Below, in pieces: positions 2,741 to 33,199 of a stretch of 33,335 nucleotides of DNA. The stretch comes from Candidatus Limnocylindrus sp. Its GTDB lineage: Bacteria; Chloroflexota; Limnocylindria; Limnocylindrales; Limnocylindraceae. The position numbers and the translations under genes were made by a program. The notes under the pieces were generated by a model. It searched no databases, was not told where the DNA came from, and saw only the letters and a program-made list of their open reading frames with translations. The stretch spans positions 1 through 33,335 of the forward strand of contig JBBAWM010000007.1 in NCBI GenBank assembly GCA_040397175.1. Reading direction: 5' to 3'. The number at the start of each line of letters is the position of its first letter. Positions within the stretch are counted from its first letter, which is position 1.

Positions 2741-3856
2741 TCAGTTCACTGGTTTGATGATCGTGAATGCGCCGGCTGCTTTGACCTTCGGCGTGATCGG
2801 GTAGAACTGATCAATAAGCCGATATCTGATGTTGCCGCTTGTTCTCGCCGTAAAAGGATCAACCGCAATTCCTGCGATTGTTCCGGTGTATCGCTGAGTT
2901 GCGTCCGGCAGATTACCGTTCGCCGCGTTGACGGTGAAGTCGTAGCTGCCAGCATTTGTGGGTGTTCCCGCGAGCAGGCCGGAAGATTTGTCTAGCGTCA
3001 GCCCGCCGGGAAGCATTCCGCCGGTCACCGTCCAGGTGACCGGTGTAGTGCTAGTTGCGGACAGTCGTTGTCCGCTGCCTACTCCGACTGCTAGCGGCTG
3101 CAATATTGACGTGGTGATCGTCGGCGGGGTGATATCGGTGGCGAATAACTGTCCTAGCATCCACGTCGCTTCAAGGCGATAGCCCGCCGCGTTGGGGTGC
3201 AAACCGTCCGACATGTACGAAGACGGGGTGCTGGTGTTTGCGATGGCCTGACGTAGATCTAACGCCCACACAAGCGGGTTTGATGGGCTTTGCAGAAGTG
3301 GCGTGGTGAACGGTATTGACTGCCCAACAAGGTCGTTCATCATCCTTGACTGACCGGCAAGGTAGGTGGCGGCGGGAGTGCCGTAGGTGTAGTTCGACAT
3401 GGGGATGATGACAATGTCATTCCACTTATCCAATGCCGTAGATATGAACGTTTGCATCGCGGTGGAAAGTTGGGCAGGCGTCAGTGCCCCCAGCCCCATG
3501 TCATTTAGGCCGGATCTGATCAGAACTATGTCAGGGCGAACGGCAAGGCTGACAGGAATTCCAGCTGTTTGATACGCAGTTGTGGTGCCGCCCAGACTGT
3601 AATTCGCCATGACCATCTTCGGTGCTGAAGATCCAAGCGAAGACCGATACCACGATGATCCTGTTTGCGATGTCACGTTGATGTCCAGCTTCGCCCCGAT
3701 GAACGCGGCTAAACGACCAATCCACGATGTAGCAAAAGCGAAACCGTCGCCACCAAAGTCACCGACACCCTGAACCGTTGAGTCGCCAACACAGGTGATC
3801 CGGGTGCCTAAACCTGCCGCGATCTTGGCCAGCAGAACATCGGTGGGCAGGGTCAT
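2741..3856 (-). CDS. SGNH/GDSL hydrolase with C-terminal putative Ig domain (371 aa), tail-associated esterase candidate
   Basis: All four SGNH blocks present: CVGDSTVQG, YSLGGTT, RSGLND, SDGLHPNAAGY. Then LPGGLTLDKSSGLLAGTPT..GSYDFTVNAAN (putative Ig). Start at ATG 3856 by ATGA overlap. Confidence 0.85.
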   Translation of the reverse strand: MTLPTDVLLAKIAAGLGTRITCVGDSTVQGVGDFGGDGFAFATSWIGRLAAFIGAKLDINVTSQTGSSWYRSSLGSSAPKMVMANYSLGGTTTAYQTAGIPVSLAVRPDIVLIRSGLNDMGLGALTPAQLSTAMQTFISTALDKWNDIVIIPMSNYTYGTPAATYLAGQSRMMNDLVGQSIPFTTPLLQSPSNPLVWALDLRQAIANTSTPSSYMSDGLHPNAAGYRLEATWMLGQLFATDITPPTITTSILQPLAVGVGSGQRLSATSTTPVTWTVTGGMLPGGLTLDKSSGLLAGTPTNAGSYDFTVNAANGNLPDATQRYTGTIAGIAVDPFTARTSGNIRYRLIDQFYPITPKVKAAGAFTIIKPVN

Positions 3857-6228
3857 GTTGTGCTTAAGTTCACGGCTGCGCCCGCCCAAGGACCACCCAC
3901 GCTCGTCGCCGCAAACGTTGTTGTTGATGATGAACTAACGGCATCACCCATAACGAAGCTCTGATACCAAACATTCAAGAAACCGGCCTGGTTTTCCCGT
4001 TGGGACTTGCTATACCCAGAGATCGCACCACCCACGCTCTGGTATGTACCAAACGCTTGGGAAACCACGTTTCCAGCAGCGGACGTAACCGACTGAGACA
4101 GTGCAGTTCCAGAACTAGAACTGGACACCAACGCTCCGATTGACGCTACGTTGGCGTAAGCCGCCGACTGAATGCGCCAAGCGATGTTACTGACCGTGGA
4201 GGAAATCGAGATGGCTTTCACACCAGCATCCACACCAGTCAGCGTTAAGCACACCAAGCCCATTCGTGCGCCAGCAGATTGGTAAGGCACTTCACCCTTA
4301 ACGGTCATCGAAACACCGCCGTAAGTGCCGGCAAATGTGGGGACGGAATTGCCGCCTGCGTTGACGTATTCGACCCACACCACAACGGCATCCCCGGCAG
4401 TAGCCGAAGGGCCATTCGCGGTGATAGTGCCACCGCTCCCAGTGTTAAAGGTTCCCAAAGCACGGAACGATGCGCTTGGGCTAGAAACAGTTCCCGTAAA
4501 TGACCTGTCCGCAAAGGACGATGCGCCGTTGGTTAGGCGAATAGTCACACTGTAGGAACCACTCACTGTTGGTGTACCCGAGATGACACCAGTAGAGGTG
4601 TTCAAAGACAACCCTGTCGGGAGGGCACCGGATTGAATTGCGAACACCAGGGTGGGATAGCCGGTAGCCGTCAGCGTTTGGGAGAACGCAGTTCCTAACG
4701 TGATTGTATTCAGGGTGGACTCAGCGATAGCCGGGGTGGACTCAACGGTTGTTCCGCTGTACGTCTTGTCGTTAGTTCCGTAAGAGTTTGTGGCCCGGAC
4801 GATGGCACTGTACGAACCAGTGACGGTGGCGGTACCTGAGATGACTCCTGTAGAAGTGTTGAGAGACAACCCTGTGGGGAGGGCACCGGAGACAACCGCC
4901 CATGAAGTGGGTGTGCCGGTGGCGGCGAGAGTCTGTGAGAACGCCATTGACCTGTAGATGGTGTTCAACGTTGTTGTTGTTATGGCCGGTGCGGCACCGA
5001 CAACAGATCCGGTGAATGCTTGGTTGCTGAACCCGGCGTCGTTCGTGGCCCTGATGGTGAAGCTGTACGACCCAGCGGCAGTCGGAGTGCCCGAGATGAC
5101 ACCAGACGCAGTGTTGAGAGACAACCCGGTGGGGAGCGTGCCAGAGTTGACAGACCATGTGATCGGAACTGAACCTGACGCATTGATGACTTGCGAGTAT
5201 TGCGATCCGATTGACACGGTTCCGCTCAGCGCCGTTGTGGTGATGGTCGGTGCCACAGCAGCGCTGATTGTTCCGGTGTATGTCTTGGTGTTAGATCCGA
5301 ATCCGTTGGTTGCTGCCACGGTGAAGTTGTAAGAACCGGCTGCCGTAGGGATTCCGTATAACTCCCCCGCTGATGACAGCGTGAGTCCTGCGGTTAGCGT
5401 GCCGGCGGTGACTGTCCACAGGATGGGTGCTGTGCCGGAAGTCAGCAGCATTTGACTGGAATAAATGCCTTGCGACAAGCTGCCCAGGGTAGTTGTGCTG
5501 ATCGTGGGTGGGGTGCCCGATGTGTCCATCCACACGTCACCGTTAATGGCGTTGGTGGGTTGCACGGAACCGATCCAAATCACTGCCACAGTTACTGCTG
5601 GCCTTACATACGCTGCGTTGTTTCCGTGAGTAACAGTGCTGTTGTAGCTGTTCGACGGTAGGAACGGGGTGCCGACAGCGACAGGCCCGGATGCCGATTC
5701 AACCAGCGCCTGGACGTAGGTGCCGTCTAGGGCCGGTGTTAACCCGATGATGCCGTAGCCGCGATCACCCTTTGGGCCTTGCGGCAGCAACTTCGACGTA
5801 GACACTGTTCCGGTAGCCTGTAACACGTTTGCAAGTTGGATGACAACGTCGGTGCTGGGTGCGGTGAAATATCCGTGATCAACGTTGACCTTGTCGCCAA
5901 GCGGTGTACGAAGGTCAAACTCAACTTTGTAGTTGAGGCTGTCGAGTTTGAGCACAGGGTCGTTGGCCCACAGGCGGACGCCGATAGCGCCGGAGCGTTC
6001 CGATTTCAGCCGGCCGTCAACGTCGATGTATCCGGTGAAAGCCTGCAGTTTGAAACCAGCCGGACGCGGCGAATACGTCGGAGCCAGTACCGGCCTGTTG
6101 TCTGTAGTCAGTGGTGTGAAGGTCACAGTGCCTATCAGCGGCACGATGTCGGCGTCTATGCCTGAATCGGAGGAGTCGGTCTGCGATGCGAACAGATCGT
6201 AGTTGACGGTGAAGTTGGTGATGCTCAC
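3853..6228 (-). CDS. Minor tail/adhesin protein (791 aa) with four putative Ig (He_PIG-like) repeats
   Basis: N-terminal baseplate-anchor-like region (PLIGTVTFTP...GVRLWAND), short GPKGDRG collagen-like linker, WIGSVQPTNAINGDVW motif, four GxLPTGLSLNTxxGVISGTPT..GSY-type repeats, beta-rich C-terminal domain. Confidence 0.85.
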   Translation of the reverse strand: MSITNFTVNYDLFASQTDSSDSGIDADIVPLIGTVTFTPLTTDNRPVLAPTYSPRPAGFKLQAFTGYIDVDGRLKSERSGAIGVRLWANDPVLKLDSLNYKVEFDLRTPLGDKVNVDHGYFTAPSTDVVIQLANVLQATGTVSTSKLLPQGPKGDRGYGIIGLTPALDGTYVQALVESASGPVAVGTPFLPSNSYNSTVTHGNNAAYVRPAVTVAVIWIGSVQPTNAINGDVWMDTSGTPPTISTTTLGSLSQGIYSSQMLLTSGTAPILWTVTAGTLTAGLTLSSAGELYGIPTAAGSYNFTVAATNGFGSNTKTYTGTISAAVAPTITTTALSGTVSIGSQYSQVINASGSVPITWSVNSGTLPTGLSLNTASGVISGTPTAAGSYSFTIRATNDAGFSNQAFTGSVVGAAPAITTTTLNTIYRSMAFSQTLAATGTPTSWAVVSGALPTGLSLNTSTGVISGTATVTGSYSAIVRATNSYGTNDKTYSGTTVESTPAIAESTLNTITLGTAFSQTLTATGYPTLVFAIQSGALPTGLSLNTSTGVISGTPTVSGSYSVTIRLTNGASSFADRSFTGTVSSPSASFRALGTFNTGSGGTITANGPSATAGDAVVVWVEYVNAGGNSVPTFAGTYGGVSMTVKGEVPYQSAGARMGLVCLTLTGVDAGVKAISISSTVSNIAWRIQSAAYANVASIGALVSSSSSGTALSQSVTSAAGNVVSQAFGTYQSVGGAISGYSKSQRENQAGFLNVWYQSFVMGDAVSSSSTTTFAATSVGGPWAGAAVNLSTT
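4577..5145. repeat. Three similar ~56-bp direct repeats encoding the Ig repeat cores
   Basis: Copies at 4577-4632, 4835-4890 and 5090-5145 (spacing 258 and 255 nt), consensus like ccYgagatgacaccag..gtgttgagagacaacc..t.gggag. Confidence 0.8.
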
Positions 6229-29035: not shown

Positions 29036-29192
29036 TTTGTCTGCCCCCCCTGCGCGCGATGCTTACGTAAGTTTCAAGATCAACGTAAGTAGTTCTCTGT
29101 AAGTCGCGTGCGTACGTGCGTGCATTGCTAAATCGAAAAGTGGTAAGCAGTGCTTGGGCATATGCTTGGGCATTGCTTGGAGCATCAGACAT
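29028..29192 (-). CDS. Short ORF across the iteron-like region (54 aa), possibly the out-of-frame linker of the initiator
   Basis: MSDAPSNAQAYAQALL...NARTYAR... from ORF 29028-29414; overlaps both neighbours by 8 nt. Confidence 0.4.
   Translation of the reverse strand: MSDAPSNAQAYAQALLTTFRFSNARTYARDLQRTTYVDLETYVSIARRGGRQNA
29121..29185. repeat. Iteron-like repeats, candidate replication origin
   Basis: TGCTTGGGCA at 29151-29160 and 29163-29172, TGCTTGGAGCA at 29174-29184, with dyads GCAGTGC, GCATATGC, GCATTGC and a further GCATTGC at 29122-29128. Confidence 0.6.
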
Positions 29193-29550
29193 CTTTGAAC
29201 TGCCTTCCGTTGCGGTTCGCCCACCGTGCAGCCGCCGCCTTCTTCGCCTTATCGCTTCGCCTTGTGGCTTCCTCGTTCGCCAGTTGAAACTCAGACCAGC
29301 CGTTGATGTCCCACCCGCCCGGTGCGGGACGCCACAGATCGTGCGCCACCAGTTGGGCGGCATCGGATGAGGTGGCACCGAACACCCGCAGCGCGGCCTT
29401 GGGCACGAATCCACCTAGGTTGTGGCGTCCCGAGTAGCACATGGCTTGGAGGTGGGCGACGATGGCGCGGTGCTGCCGGTCTTCCTGTAAGTACAGAAGT
29501 TTTGGATTGTCAAATATTGTGGTGTCCAGCCGAATCCACATCAGCCCCAT
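29185..29550 (-). CDS. Replication-initiator-like N-terminal DNA-binding protein (121 aa)
   Basis: WIRLDT...DNPK...YS......GFVP......LV...LW.....GW.I.GW.EFQ...RRS.KAKKAAAARW matches phage initiator N-domains; GGGGAG RBS. Confidence 0.7.
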   Translation of the reverse strand: MGLMWIRLDTTIFDNPKLLYLQEDRQHRAIVAHLQAMCYSGRHNLGGFVPKAALRVFGATSSDAAQLVAHDLWRPAPGGWDINGWSEFQLANEEATRRSDKAKKAAAARWANRNGRQFKDV

Positions 29551-29886
29551 CTATGCGCTCTCCCCTGTTGGTATGACGTATCCCAGGTCGTCCAGCCACA
29601 CCCATTGGGTGCGTCGGTAGTTCACGATCACGTCGGCCGGCTGGAACCGGGATCGCACGGACCATCCGTTGTCGAATGCGTGCAAAGGTCGTTCGGTGAC
29701 CACTCCGTGGCAGCCGGTGGTTCCCGAGCCGCACAAATGCAGGGCATTGGATAAGTCGTGTGCCCCGCCTTGGCTGCGGTTCTTGCGGTGATGCCAATTC
29801 GTGGCCGGTGCGACACCGCACAACTCGCACACACCTTGGGATCGGATACGCAGCAAGTCGCGCTGCTTCTTCGAAATGTGGGTCAT
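29551..29886 (-). CDS. HNH endonuclease (111 aa)
   Basis: CELC...HHRKNRSQGG....SN..HLCG....GCH. Confidence 0.9.
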   Translation of the reverse strand: MTHISKKQRDLLRIRSQGVCELCGVAPATNWHHRKNRSQGGAHDLSNALHLCGSGTTGCHGVVTERPLHAFDNGWSVRSRFQPADVIVNYRRTQWVWLDDLGYVIPTGESA

Positions 29887-29993
29887 GCGGGCTTCGCTAT
29901 CGGTGTCAGCGCCGAGTTTCCGATGGCTTCAAGGCCAGCTTTACGCATTTTTGGGTGCAAATGTGCGGCGTCATCGACGGGAAACCAGGACAC
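29883..29993 (-). pseudogene. Truncated N-terminus of a second replication-initiator gene (36 aa)
   Basis: Hand-translated MSWFPVDDAAHLHPKMRKAGLEAIGNSALTPIAKPA; GAGGAGG RBS; matches the 'WF.VDD..H.HPK...AG.EAIG' initiator start, then breaks off. Confidence 0.7.
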
Positions 29994-30707
29994 CTAGCCC
30001 TCCTCAGATAGAAGTTTGGTGACCATTGCAAGTACTTCCGGGTTGAGCTGACGCCGCAACGTAGCGGCAATTAACTCGGCACGGTCAGCCCGGATGGTGA
30101 ATGTCTTCGGGCGGAACCCGGCCTTGACGGCGGCGGCGTGGGCGCTTACTTCCCCGTCGAGCACCTGGGCGTGAAGGTCGGGGCGGTGCTTGCGCAGCCG
30201 GCGCAAAGCAGCGGATTCCCTATTCCCACTTGGCCTTTCATCAAAACAACCGTGTACATTGTACACGGTTGTTTTAGGGTCCGCTGCTATGCAAGAGGCG
30301 TCACGCATACAGTCCGGGTCACAGTTTTCGATACCTGGGCAGCCAGATACGAAACACTCATCAGCCCACTCGCTAACGCCACCTTTTGCTGCGTTCCGGT
30401 TCCCGGTGGGCGCACCTTCTGGCTGCTGCATTGCCGCGTCGAGCGCATCAATAAACGTTTGGTCAGCCCCGGCCGCGTAGCCCTTAATGTTCTTCACCGT
30501 GGTGTTCAGTCCGCGCGGTATCCCGCCAGTGACCCACTCCGCGAAGCTTTGCGGCTCACATGCCTTCCCAATGGGCGGCTCGTAGTGCTTCCACGCCTCG
30601 GCCTCAAGCACTTTCAGCAGTGCAGCCCTAGCCTTCGCAAGGTCGGGAACCTTCATGTTGAACGCCAGGATGGCGTCCTGTACTAGAGTCCAGTTGTCGT
30701 CAGCCAT
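29994..30707 (-). CDS. Uncharacterised protein coupled to the HNH-helicase (237 aa), possible C-terminal helical DNA-binding region
   Basis: Start reassigned to ATG 30707 (8-nt overlap with the helicase). Motifs SFAEWVT..IPRGL and GNRESAALRRLRKHRPDLHAQVLDGEVSAHAAAVKAGFR. Confidence 0.8.
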   Translation of the reverse strand: MADDNWTLVQDAILAFNMKVPDLAKARAALLKVLEAEAWKHYEPPIGKACEPQSFAEWVTGGIPRGLNTTVKNIKGYAAGADQTFIDALDAAMQQPEGAPTGNRNAAKGGVSEWADECFVSGCPGIENCDPDCMRDASCIAADPKTTVYNVHGCFDERPSGNRESAALRRLRKHRPDLHAQVLDGEVSAHAAAVKAGFRPKTFTIRADRAELIAATLRRQLNPEVLAMVTKLLSEEG

Positions 30708-32694
30708 GGTTGCCACGCAGGAACTTCGTCTGCTCACGCGCGTAGGTAGTGGCCTTCTCCAACTGCGTGATAGTGATGTTCTTGTTCGACTTCCACACGT
30801 CGAAAATCTGGCCCAACTCCGTATTGCAATCCCGCACAGAATCACGGAACGCGGAGAACTCTCCCGCCTTGACCCGCTGGCCAGCCCACGCATTCACCGC
30901 CGCAGTTTTGCTATTGATACGCGACTGTAGTTTGGCGAGCGGGTCGGAGGTAGGGGCTGGCGGGGGTGAGGGCGAGGTGAGGTTGAGCATGCCTCGCTCG
31001 CGGAGCTTGGACAGAAGCGAGAGCGTCTGCGTCGGTTGGCCGCCCATCTCCCTAGCGAGCGCGGCTAGTTCGGCGTCATGGAACTCGCCAGCCGCTGTGG
31101 TTCCAGAGAACGCGGCCTCGGCGCTTACGAACCTGTCTCGGGGGTCTCCCCTTTCCCCGCAAAGCCATTCACGGCTGAACAGCGCATCATCATCAATTCC
31201 ATACTCGTCCTCATCCAGCTTGGCTATCTCGGCCAACGCCTGTTGGTCCTCAATGTCAGCGGCGTAGGTCCGCATGTATTCGTCGTCGGGAATGTAGACC
31301 CAAGCGGTTTGGTCAGTGGCTTTCGACAGTGTTCGGACAACACGAATAACCCTGCCCACCGCTTGAATGAAGAAAAGTCGGGTGCGCGTCACGGTGGCGT
31401 AGACGAGCACCTGGAGCCGCGGCACGTCAACCCCTTCACTGATCTTGTAGACAGTCAGTACCCACTTGGCGTTACCGTCCGTGAACTGCTTATGCAGGTC
31501 GTAGCTGGGATCATGGCCAGAGCGTTTGCCGTTCGGCTGCTTGCGGCCATTGCCCGGCTTATGCGAGTCGGTGGCGTATTCCTGCGTGTAAACGTGAATC
31601 GGGCCACCAGATATCCGGTGCAGTAGATCAGCGCCGGCAACTGCGGCATTAGTGCTACTGAAGATGATGAGCCCACCCGCCGCCACGTTTTCCTCGCGGA
31701 TCAGATCAAGCTGAGCGTTGGACTGCTCCAACACCAACGGCAACCAGTTGCCCTGGGGATTAAGGACGTGACGACGAGCCTTACGTGCAACATCCTTCTT
31801 GCTCTTGGCGCTAATCTTGACGGTTACCTCGTCGGCGTCATCCTCCATCCACGTCACGTCGGCGTCGTACCGCTCAAATACGGCAGAGTTGACCGGAGGT
31901 GGCTTCATCGTCAATGCGCGGCCGTAGTTGTAGTCAGCCACGCACGAATCCGGCAGCATTGAAATCTCTTTCGTCCATGGACCCTCGGTGTGAACGAACG
32001 GCACTGGCTCTTCATCCGTGCGGAATGGCGTGGCCGACAAGCACAAGACCGACTTGATATAGGGCCTTGCTGCGATGAACGGAACCGACCACGCCTGCTC
32101 GTCGGCCAAGTGGTGAACCTCGTCAAGAATAAGCAAGCTATTTGGGTTTGCGCGGTAGAGCTGCGTGATGATGTGAGGATTGGCCGCCGCGAACGCGAAC
32201 GTCATAACAACCGCACCTACAGGCTTCTCACAGTCCGCGCAGATGGTCGCCCAACCATCGCCGTTGACCACGGCAGACGGGCAGATACCTACGGCATGAA
32301 GAGACTTACGCCATGATCCGGTTGAGTCTGCCTGCGGGACTAGGATGATCCCGAACTTCCCCTCCGCCTTCAATATTGCCGCCGCACAGAACGTCTTCCC
32401 CATGCCCGGGAATGCCGCGATTAGAAACCGCGATGCGTTAACGAACTGGTATTTCTCCAGAACCTCACGTTGCCAGCCCAAAAGCTCAATGCCCACCTTG
32501 TTGCCTTTCTTCAAATTGCATGGAGGGCAGAGTGCCTGCCCGTTGATTACGTCGGTAATGCCGTTTTTTGAGTACGGATTGACGTGGTCGCCGTGCCATC
32601 CCGGCTCCAACTGGATCCCGCACTCCTCACACTTGCCATCTGCGGCCAGATACATCGCGGCCCGTTCGCTCTTGTTGAATCGGCGGCGGTTCAC
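30700..32694 (-). CDS. HNH endonuclease fused to SF2 DExH helicase (about 664 aa)
   Basis: N-terminal CEEC...GDHVNPYSKNG.T...NGQALCPPCNLKKG; helicase motifs LLGWQ, AFPGMGKT, LILDEVHH, LSATPFR, ISEGVDVPRL, FIQAVGRVIR. Start GTG 32694 by GTGA overlap. Confidence 0.92.
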   Translation of the reverse strand: MNRRRFNKSERAAMYLAADGKCEECGIQLEPGWHGDHVNPYSKNGITDVINGQALCPPCNLKKGNKVGIELLGWQREVLEKYQFVNASRFLIAAFPGMGKTFCAAAILKAEGKFGIILVPQADSTGSWRKSLHAVGICPSAVVNGDGWATICADCEKPVGAVVMTFAFAAANPHIITQLYRANPNSLLILDEVHHLADEQAWSVPFIAARPYIKSVLCLSATPFRTDEEPVPFVHTEGPWTKEISMLPDSCVADYNYGRALTMKPPPVNSAVFERYDADVTWMEDDADEVTVKISAKSKKDVARKARRHVLNPQGNWLPLVLEQSNAQLDLIREENVAAGGLIIFSSTNAAVAGADLLHRISGGPIHVYTQEYATDSHKPGNGRKQPNGKRSGHDPSYDLHKQFTDGNAKWVLTVYKISEGVDVPRLQVLVYATVTRTRLFFIQAVGRVIRVVRTLSKATDQTAWVYIPDDEYMRTYAADIEDQQALAEIAKLDEDEYGIDDDALFSREWLCGERGDPRDRFVSAEAAFSGTTAAGEFHDAELAALAREMGGQPTQTLSLLSKLRERGMLNLTSPSPPPAPTSDPLAKLQSRINSKTAAVNAWAGQRVKAGEFSAFRDSVRDCNTELGQIFDVWKSNKNITITQLEKATTYAREQTKFLRGNHG

Positions 32695-32849
32695 TGATCC
32701 CCCTGTGTTTTGCATTCGCAGCGAATGGAATGGTCGTCAACGCCGTAGCATTTGCCGGTATCGCCGTCATGCTTCAGCACGAAGTGTCCGCACCGGCAGA
32801 CGTTGAACGTTCCGCAACTGATTAGGTTCTGCCATTCTTTGTCGGTCAT
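32691..32849 (-). CDS. Small Cys/His-rich protein (52 aa)
   Basis: Hand-translated MTDKEWQNLISCGTFNVCRCGHFVLKHDGDTGKCYGVDDHSIRCECKTQGDQ; 4-nt overlaps at both ends. Confidence 0.7.
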   Translation of the reverse strand: MTDKEWQNLISCGTFNVCRCGHFVLKHDGDTGKCYGVDDHSIRCECKTQGDQ

Positions 32850-33199
32850 CGAACCTTCTCCAACTCAATTTCCGATTTGACCAAAGACCCCACCGACCTG
32901 CCGACATCCACTGACCCTTCGACAGCCCGGATCTGTGCCCGCTTATCCCGCACCGAACAATCAGCCGCTTCAGCCGCCAAACGCTCCACATGGGTTTGTT
33001 CCGTGGCAACGTATTTGCGGATATCCATAGACCCTTCAGCGGTCAGGAACGCCCGGGCGTACGCCATCACGTAGGTTTCGCGTTTCTCCACTGCTTCGCG
33101 GTCAAGCTGACCCAAGGCTTGAGTCAACGAATCCATTTCGCGGGATAGCTGCGCCAGCCTTGCGGCGACACCCGACAACGTGACTTCGTATTCAGGCAT
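32846..33199 (-). CDS. Hypothetical helical/coiled-coil protein (117 aa)
   Basis: ORF track; TGATG overlap upstream and ATGA overlap downstream. Confidence 0.75.
   Translation of the reverse strand: MPEYEVTLSGVAARLAQLSREMDSLTQALGQLDREAVEKRETYVMAYARAFLTAEGSMDIRKYVATEQTHVERLAAEAADCSVRDKRAQIRAVEGSVDVGRSVGSLVKSEIELEKVR

Follow-up and report, generated by a model that had tools for sequence, protein, structure and literature searches.

Within a 33,335-bp contig (JBBAWM010000007.1 of assembly GCA_040397175.1, deposited as Candidatus Limnocylindrus sp.), hereafter called the window, we identified a two-gene cassette in which the second gene carries a DNA palindrome that covaries with the protein encoded by that gene. 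The first gene (gene A) specifies an HNH endonuclease fused to a superfamily 2 (SF2) helicase or translocase, and the second (gene B, the partner gene) specifies a 237-amino acid (aa) protein of an unnamed family. The two genes form a conserved two-gene unit. One residue at the start of a predicted helix of the partner tracks one base pair of the palindrome, and this covariation makes it likely that the partner binds a single site in its own gene. The coordinates of all features are listed in Table 1.

The palindrome and its covariation with the partner

The centre of the window palindrome coincides with the middle base of the codon for Asn150, a position that is at least 90% conserved in the family alignment. 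The palindrome is present in a single copy in the window, and the assembly contains no further copy of its 10-bp core. Conservation was assessed by an anchored test that took the best centre 3–20 codons before a conserved Gly in 133 distinct partner linkers and tolerated mismatches over 10 pairs. At least 8 of the 10 pairs were formed in 99 of the 133 linkers; 61 linkers reached at least 9 and 25 the full 10. The threshold of at least 8 pairs was reached by 7.6% of synonymous shuffles, 6 of 252 other windows in partner genes and 10 of 237 windows in helicase genes. This mismatch-tolerant test was devised after the result of a first test, which accepted perfect arms only and was weaker (41 of 133 at p<0.05), had been seen. 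The palindrome was detected in 62 of 80 cassette representatives and in 14 of 17 loci that lack the helicase, and extra copies of the site are present at only 2 of 99 loci. Pairing extends to positions ±11 and falls off beyond, with all four pair types found at positions 3 to 11, and positions ±4 are often mismatched (paired in 68 of 99 sites). In most sites (91 of 99), the centre falls on the second base of a codon, usually one for Asn or Ile.

The residue that follows the conserved Gly, at the start of predicted helix 164–174, tracks base pair ±2 of the palindrome. Gly-Asn is accompanied by C:G in 34 of 34 cases and Gly-Thr by T:A in 43 of 44, the exception being unpaired. At ±3, Gly-Thr-Ser occurs with A:T (24 of 24) and Gly-Thr-Thr with C:G (8 of 12). 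A weaker trend is seen in the low-scoring genes, where 12 of 17 Asn residues accompany C:G and 6 of 11 Thr residues T:A, and one Asn is found with T:A. This covariation is not a protein constraint, because the synonymous third base of the preceding codon obeys the symmetry in 66 of 66 cases and two Gly-Asn sites located in another reading frame also obey the ±2 rule. The match between residue and base persists across different spacing, flanks and frames. Joint switches of residue and base pair numbered 20 on a partner tree (64 rows, built without the linker or the helix) and 13 on a helicase tree (38 rows), and supported independent pairs on the helicase tree agree in 7 of 7 cases (p 0.016). 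The first-pass annotation, made from the sequence alone, had proposed a targeting or inhibitory partner; it is the targeting role that gains support from the covariation.

The model of the gene B product comprises a confidently predicted helical N-domain (residues ~3–95), a low-confidence linker and a confidently predicted helical C-domain (residues 161–237). Its family contains 2,926 clusters (50% identity, E≤1e-10). No match to the gene B product was found in Pfam, PADLOC, PHROG or NCBIfam. Foldseek against the PDB returned nothing at E≤0.001, the fold search with VIA gave a best Z of 5.2 and nothing clear, PDB profile searches reached E values of 0.03–0.08 at best, and BFVD yielded uncharacterised phage proteins only. 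The likeness to the ParB/KorB/KorA helix-turn-helix proteins with palindromic sites consists of weak leads only: fold matches of the N-domain to Spo0J (Z 4.7; root-mean-square deviation 2.3, 60 residues aligned) and ParB (Z 4.4), a match of the C-domain to HTH_ParB (0.81) and one to KorA (E 0.16). The hhalign probabilities were 2% and 25%. Identification of the partner as ParB/Spo0J was rejected because the ParB CTPase (ParBc) domain gave no Pfam match in 93 + 63 family members and is absent from the gene B model. DUF3102 is a lead only (Atlas score 0.81). The linker of the window protein (~30240–30421) is ~40 aa longer than those of its relatives and is Cys-rich.

The HNH-helicase gene and the distribution of the pair

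Gene A matches PF01844 over residues 22–66 (40.7 bits against a gathering score of 21.4) and contains the residues C22/C25, D36-H37, N51 and C56-C59-N60. The ResIII, DEAD and Helicase_C matches in Pfam come after the HNH domain (33 versus 22.5 bits for PF04851), and motifs I, II, III, V and VI are intact (GMGKT, DEVHH, SATPFR, SEGVD and QAVGRVIR). The first-pass description of a ~66-aa N-terminal HNH with its expected residues, fused to a complete SF2 helicase that overlaps a 237-aa gene by 8 nt, is thus borne out. Across 71 cassette open reading frames (ORFs), H37 and N51 are invariant, position 60 is N or H in all 71, K100 is conserved in all 71, and D191/E192 and R448 are each conserved in 70. 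An AlphaFold2 model (pLDDT 84) matches RadD, XPB and HsdR at low identity, and PF02945 (endonuclease VII) gives a weak match (E 0.0014). Gene A is predicted to encode a DNA-cutting motor that has kept its catalytic residues.

A search in which 7,999 candidates were scored yielded 417 homologues of gene A. PF01844 is carried by 114 of the 120 homologues listed, so the fusion is not a one-off. Among 75 partly redundant viral loci retrieved with the helicase, the fused HNH is present in 58, and gene B lies within 2 kb downstream in 50 of these. The remaining eight consist of two at a contig edge, three with a coupled 216–253-aa ORF that the partner profile did not score and three without a partner. 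Coupled genes of this size behind divergent HNH-helicases (L110, 9980–10627; L131, 9872–10630; L134, 10109–10852) are possibly remote partners. In the reverse direction, 60 viral loci retrieved with the partner contain the helicase upstream in 53 cases, a distant ResIII helicase in 2 and none in 3, and the remaining 2 loci are truncated. The 53 metagenome loci comprise 18 with the helicase upstream, 15 that lack it despite sufficient room, 19 that are undecidable and 1 that is unscored; the 15 helicase-less loci include one with a distant ResIII helicase, two with a coupled primase/AAA_25 motor and one with a DUF3854-linked gene. The partners behind the primase/AAA_25 genes (L254, 1568–4365; L255, 1391–4170) are near-identical, and their motors differ. 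At L258 (205–2380), the partner lies behind a DUF3854 gene pair and the helicase is absent.

Clustering of 115 cassette loci at 90% left 83 non-redundant loci, mostly viral, and this neighbourhood survey confirmed that the two genes co-occur elsewhere. There is no third conserved gene: every other family is limited to 10 or fewer of the 83 loci, and the remaining frequent clusters represent shadow ORFs that overlap or lie on the opposite strand. Of 401 actinobacterial genomes, 2 were found to contain the partner. At two Kitasatospora loci, the N-domain still follows the helicase but the C-domain has been swapped, and no palindrome of more than 8/10 pairs was found within ~1.4 kb there. In these loci (L137, 11887–13284; L138, 11884–13320), the N-domain is fused to an unrelated region of ~370 aa with a helix-turn-helix-like stretch, as judged by eye. 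In another locus (L008, 4925–6121), the helicase gene is interrupted by an IS200/IS605-type transposase gene.

A chromosomal actinobacterial SF2 family without HNH, which the first-pass annotation had called 'Rv2917-like', does exist. Examination of the best 80 of 571 genome loci revealed 74 HNH-less and partner-less forms and 6 cassettes, and both forms occur together in two genomes. At E≤1e-80, 80 of the 401 actinobacterial genomes match the helicase, nearly all from profile position ~70 on. The chromosomal family shares the motor and the C-terminal region with gene A but lacks both HNH and partner at all 74 loci. The window protein sits on a long branch and is not a close relative of this family. 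Trees that included 25 and 10 of the 74 group the HNH-less form into a single clade within the cassettes. However, an approximately unbiased (AU) test did not reject cassette monophyly (p 0.18; 38 rows, 31 long or redundant rows dropped), so domestication, namely the derivation of the chromosomal helicase from a cassette by loss of HNH and partner, is a lead only. Rv2917 itself is tabulated as an SF2 helicase labelled SdrA in PMC2587704; the S. avermitilis protein of that name, a DeoR regulator, is unrelated. A second HNH-less, partner-less helicase clade (L100, L111, L113, L118 and L129) is separate from the actinobacterial one.

Mobility and genomic setting of the cassette

The window represents a complete contig with a G+C content of 0.58, in an assembly of 1.38 Mb with main contigs at ~0.63. 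It contains portal, capsid, tail and WhiB genes, and the phage-record matches of four of its genes are mainly to Mycobacterium phages. Because the 16S of the assembly looked Chloroflexota-like and none of 24 same-genus genomes contains a strong match to the gene A helicase, the contig is probably a co-binned (mis-binned) actinophage resembling mycobacteriophages. Lower G+C is common to contigs C6, C8, C11 and C14 of the same assembly. The tail region of the window (2741–6228) includes genes with putative Ig repeats, one of them fused to a GDSL lipase domain.

The view of the pair as an exchangeable module is upheld by an empty slot in phage Marvin, by the ends of the block at 29920 and 32705 and by the lack of a fixed flanking family. 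In Marvin, gp64 directly abuts gp65, whereas the cassette and a 52-aa ORF lie between the homologues of these genes in the window. In three sequencing runs from other studies (X3–X5), near-identical DNA is almost confined to 29920–32705. Further loose ends near 30139 and 30421–30426, together with one X2 contig that skips 30240–30421 (contigs only), suggest variation of the linker segment between close relatives. Neither terminal repeats nor a target duplication were conspicuous at the cassette, no promoter match was found there, and terminator-like sites were at or below chance.

The pair had also been described as ending at a broken initiator stub. This does not hold: a separate 111-aa HNH gene intervenes, and the short initiator form is shared with viable phages. 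The 121-aa ORF, which spans only ~120 of the 312 positions of phrog_3926, is 77% identical to Tweety gp74 (124 aa) over 99% of its length; because gp74 of this viable phage shares its length, its stop position and similar repeats thereafter, the short form is not a scar. The ORF and its repeats are perhaps a split initiator with its origin, with the same break in Tweety.

The flanks of the non-redundant loci were scanned using up to two crude ORF calls per side (150/154 upstream and 150 downstream). Upstream matches include repressors, integrases, DnaB and RecE/RecT. Downstream, replication initiators, DnaC loaders and primases are commonest and methyltransferases also occur; no flank family has more than 6 members. 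PADLOC matches (E≤1e-10) among the 300 flanking ORFs, which come mostly from viral contigs, are few, mostly methyltransferases, with at most 2 members per family. The address of the cassette in this sample, which is biased to viral contigs, appears to be an early replication region rather than a defence island. Of the roles first proposed (defence, host DNA degradation or phage replication), defence gains little from this context. The most frequent neighbour family is a methyltransferase (10 of 83 loci), and none is encoded by the five neighbouring window genes scanned. In Tweety and Wachhund (L229 and L230), DNA methyltransferases occupy the slot that precedes the initiator-like gene.

Table 1. 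Coordinates of the cassette, its parts and the adjoining genes in the window
Feature	Position	Strand	Remarks
Gene A: HNH endonuclease fused to SF2 (ResIII/RadD/XPB-like) helicase or translocase	30700..32694	-	664 aa, GTG start
N-terminal HNH domain, residues 1-66	32497..32694	-	PF01844 E 2.6e-10; Zn cysteines 22/25/56/59; H37, N51, N60
SF2 motor core, two RecA-like domains	31231..32484	-	Foldseek RadD E 3e-13
Helical C-terminal region of gene A	30718..31071	-	Also present in chromosomal HNH-less family
Gene B (partner), unnamed family	29994..30707	-	237 aa; overlaps gene A by 8 nt
Perfect DNA palindrome, 16-bp arms, 1-nt centre at 30259	30243..30275		Predicted partner binding site in gene B linker
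Gly161-Asn162 and predicted helix 164-174, putative recognition helix	30186..30227	-	Second residue tracks palindrome base pair ±2
Approximate limits of mobile block, including ribosome-binding region of gene A	29920..32705		Loose ends 32705 (X3, X4) and 29920 (X3)
Free-standing HNH gene, outside cassette	29551..29886	-	111 aa; homologue of Marvin gp65 and Tweety gp65
117-aa gene, outside cassette	32846..33199	-	Homologue of Marvin gp64
121-aa initiator-like ORF (29185-29550) and short imperfect repeats past its stop, outside cassette	29145..29550	-	Same layout in Tweety

Possible functions and relation to known systems

The reading that we tentatively prefer, at rather less than even confidence, is that the cassette is a mobile phage module whose partner, bound to the palindrome in its own gene, would load the HNH-helicase, so that nicking and unwinding there could serve as an auxiliary replication or recombination origin. 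A partner dimer very probably reads both half-sites through the helix after Gly161-Asn162. Its N-domain, which the two Kitasatospora loci keep alone, quite likely docks the motor. The HNH would then nick near the site, the motor would unwind or translocate, and the nick would supply a 3' end from which rolling-circle or recombination-dependent copying could start, to the advantage of the carrier. The origin step is suggested by the replication neighbours, by the coupling to primase motors and by known cases in which an origin lies within an initiator gene. Lambda O and P2 A are initiators with an origin inside their own gene. The same arrangement is described for repC (PMC3155836).

Several observations weigh against this reading. 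As many as 34 of the 133 partner genes score below 8/10 pairs. A+T content is 0.61 at the site and 0.32–0.43 around it, with no flanking A+T-rich stretch. Supported independent pairs on the partner tree agree in 5 of 5 cases (p 0.06), where significance is out of reach, and the site lies only ~30 nt from the helix codons, so that block exchange could inflate the number of joint changes. Many carriers, apparently including the window, have their own initiator next door. The module is dispensable, as indicated by the empty slot in Marvin and by phage PIS 136, the only carrier of both genes, adjacent to each other, among 50,697 phage records. Finally, an early-region address is expected of any lytic accessory gene.

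Instead of loading a motor, the partner-bound palindrome could mark the phage's own genome, leaving the ATP-driven HNH-helicase to cut unmarked host or co-infecting DNA without a methyltransferase, with exclusion or host shut-off as the outcome. The order of a nuclease before an SF2 motor is also found in PDB 7clg, which we take to be SauUSI, and in PbeA, the best PADLOC match (E 2.8e-15, ~160 of 672 positions). Operons of one to three genes that combine a nuclease with an NTPase form a recognised class of defence (10.1101/2025.07.10.664194), and the patchy, mobile spread of a block that has moved among flanks, the frequent specificity switches and the uniqueness of the site and of its core would all suit such a role. 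On the other hand, a single mark per genome would require long-range protection, the cassette is coupled inside an early operon and has no promoter match, and the few PADLOC matches in the flanks are mostly methyltransferases; we consider this explanation somewhat unlikely. An autoregulatory operator, at which the partner acts as a roadblock that sets the levels of itself and of the downstream replication genes while separately restraining or assisting the helicase, with no loading at the site, appears unlikely. It would account for the persistence of the site with the partner in 14 of the 17 helicase-less loci, for the weak likeness to ParB/KorB/KorA-type binders and for the initiators that are often just downstream. 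Yet it leaves the tight coupling to DNA motors unexplained, and the upstream helicase gene would be beyond repression because the site lies ~450 nt inside the second gene.

We regard a selfish homing-type element as improbable. In that case, the HNH would cut cassette-less alleles in mixed infections, the motor would promote conversion, and the site would provide immunity only. Although the sharp block ends in different flanks, the empty slot in Marvin and the reduced depth in one run, perhaps the source (20.6 inside the cassette versus 36–38 beside it), agree with homing, the insertion site is not conserved (a flanking family recurs in 10 of 83 loci at most), and neither terminal repeats nor a target duplication stood out. 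It is very improbable that the palindrome, instead of being a protein site, reflects a protein motif or forms an RNA hairpin or a cruciform on which the HNH acts. The centring of most sites on a middle codon base and the weak resemblance of the HNH to endonuclease VII could be explained in this manner, but the synonymous bases and the other-frame sites follow the symmetry, and the 1-nt centre, the frequent mismatch at ±4 and the fall-off past ±11 fit the footprint of a dimer.

The cassette resembles several known systems in part. Like the nuclease-NTPase defence systems Hachiman, AbpAB, Azaca and Hna (10.1101/2025.07.10.664194), it is a compact operon of a nuclease, an SF2 NTPase and an accessory gene without a methyltransferase, and the pair falls within the definition given there (one to three genes, nuclease plus NTPase, no methyltransferase), which covers a loose architecture only. 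It differs in having an HNH nuclease, a term absent from the main text of that source, in its location in phage early regions and in a partner with a covarying site in its own gene. PbeA and SauUSI-type fusions and Type III Res subunits have, like gene A, an N-terminal nuclease on a ResIII-type motor. However, PbeA is described as having an HKD nuclease and the partners PbeB-D (PMC10853773), and gene A was excluded from PbeABCD/Dnd restriction because it has HNH, not HKD, and scores 36.4 bits against a cut-off of 600 for TIGR04095. Type I/III restriction-modification was rejected for want of a conserved cognate methyltransferase (nearby in 10 of 83 loci). The only HNH-helicase met in the literature searched is CRISPR-linked and has its HNH at the C-terminus. 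RadD and XPB-Bax1, the best fold and profile matches of the gene A motor (14–17% identity), have neither a fused HNH nor a site-bearing partner.

Initiators with the origin in their own gene, such as RepC of repABC (PMC3155836), likewise combine a single cis site in the coding sequence with replication neighbours, and the partner gene does contain a conserved cis site; in contrast, it has a dyad palindrome rather than iterons or an A+T-rich unwinding region, matches no initiator family and is accompanied by an HNH-SF2 motor instead of DnaB or an HUH nickase. No PADLOC model covers most of either protein, and the inability of the first-pass annotation to assign the pair to a named system stands, as no named system matched it in PADLOC, NCBIfam or the literature searched. 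Neither the pair nor the site was found described in that literature; subscription journals and supplements lay outside it, and candidate lists of defence screens there could hold the pair. On its sequence features, the cassette would work like a site-loaded nuclease-translocase, yet one outside Pbe/Dnd, Type I/III restriction-modification and ParB, and the self-encoded site with its residue-to-base code appears to be new, the function of the system being a prediction.

We consider it an even chance that the pair represents a self-addressed nuclease-motor class, in which a specificity subunit encodes its own target palindrome ~30 nt from the codons that read it and directs an HNH-SF2 motor either to its own genome or away from it, with no need for methylation or a guide RNA. 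Site and reader would be swapped as a cartridge with a simple residue-to-base code, and the loss of HNH and partner may have produced the widespread chromosomal actinobacterial helicase. For the unnamed family of 2,926 clusters, the findings point to an activity that can be tested, a binding site predicted for every member and a specificity switch of one residue, and the family supplies naturally orthogonal protein-site pairs. Should the motor indeed be loaded at the palindrome, the targeting logic would be unlike that of restriction-modification, CRISPR or HUH rolling-circle initiators, and it could provide temperate phages with a route to nick-primed copying or to self/non-self discrimination. 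These results also provide a lead as to how an uncharacterised actinobacterial chromosomal helicase arose.

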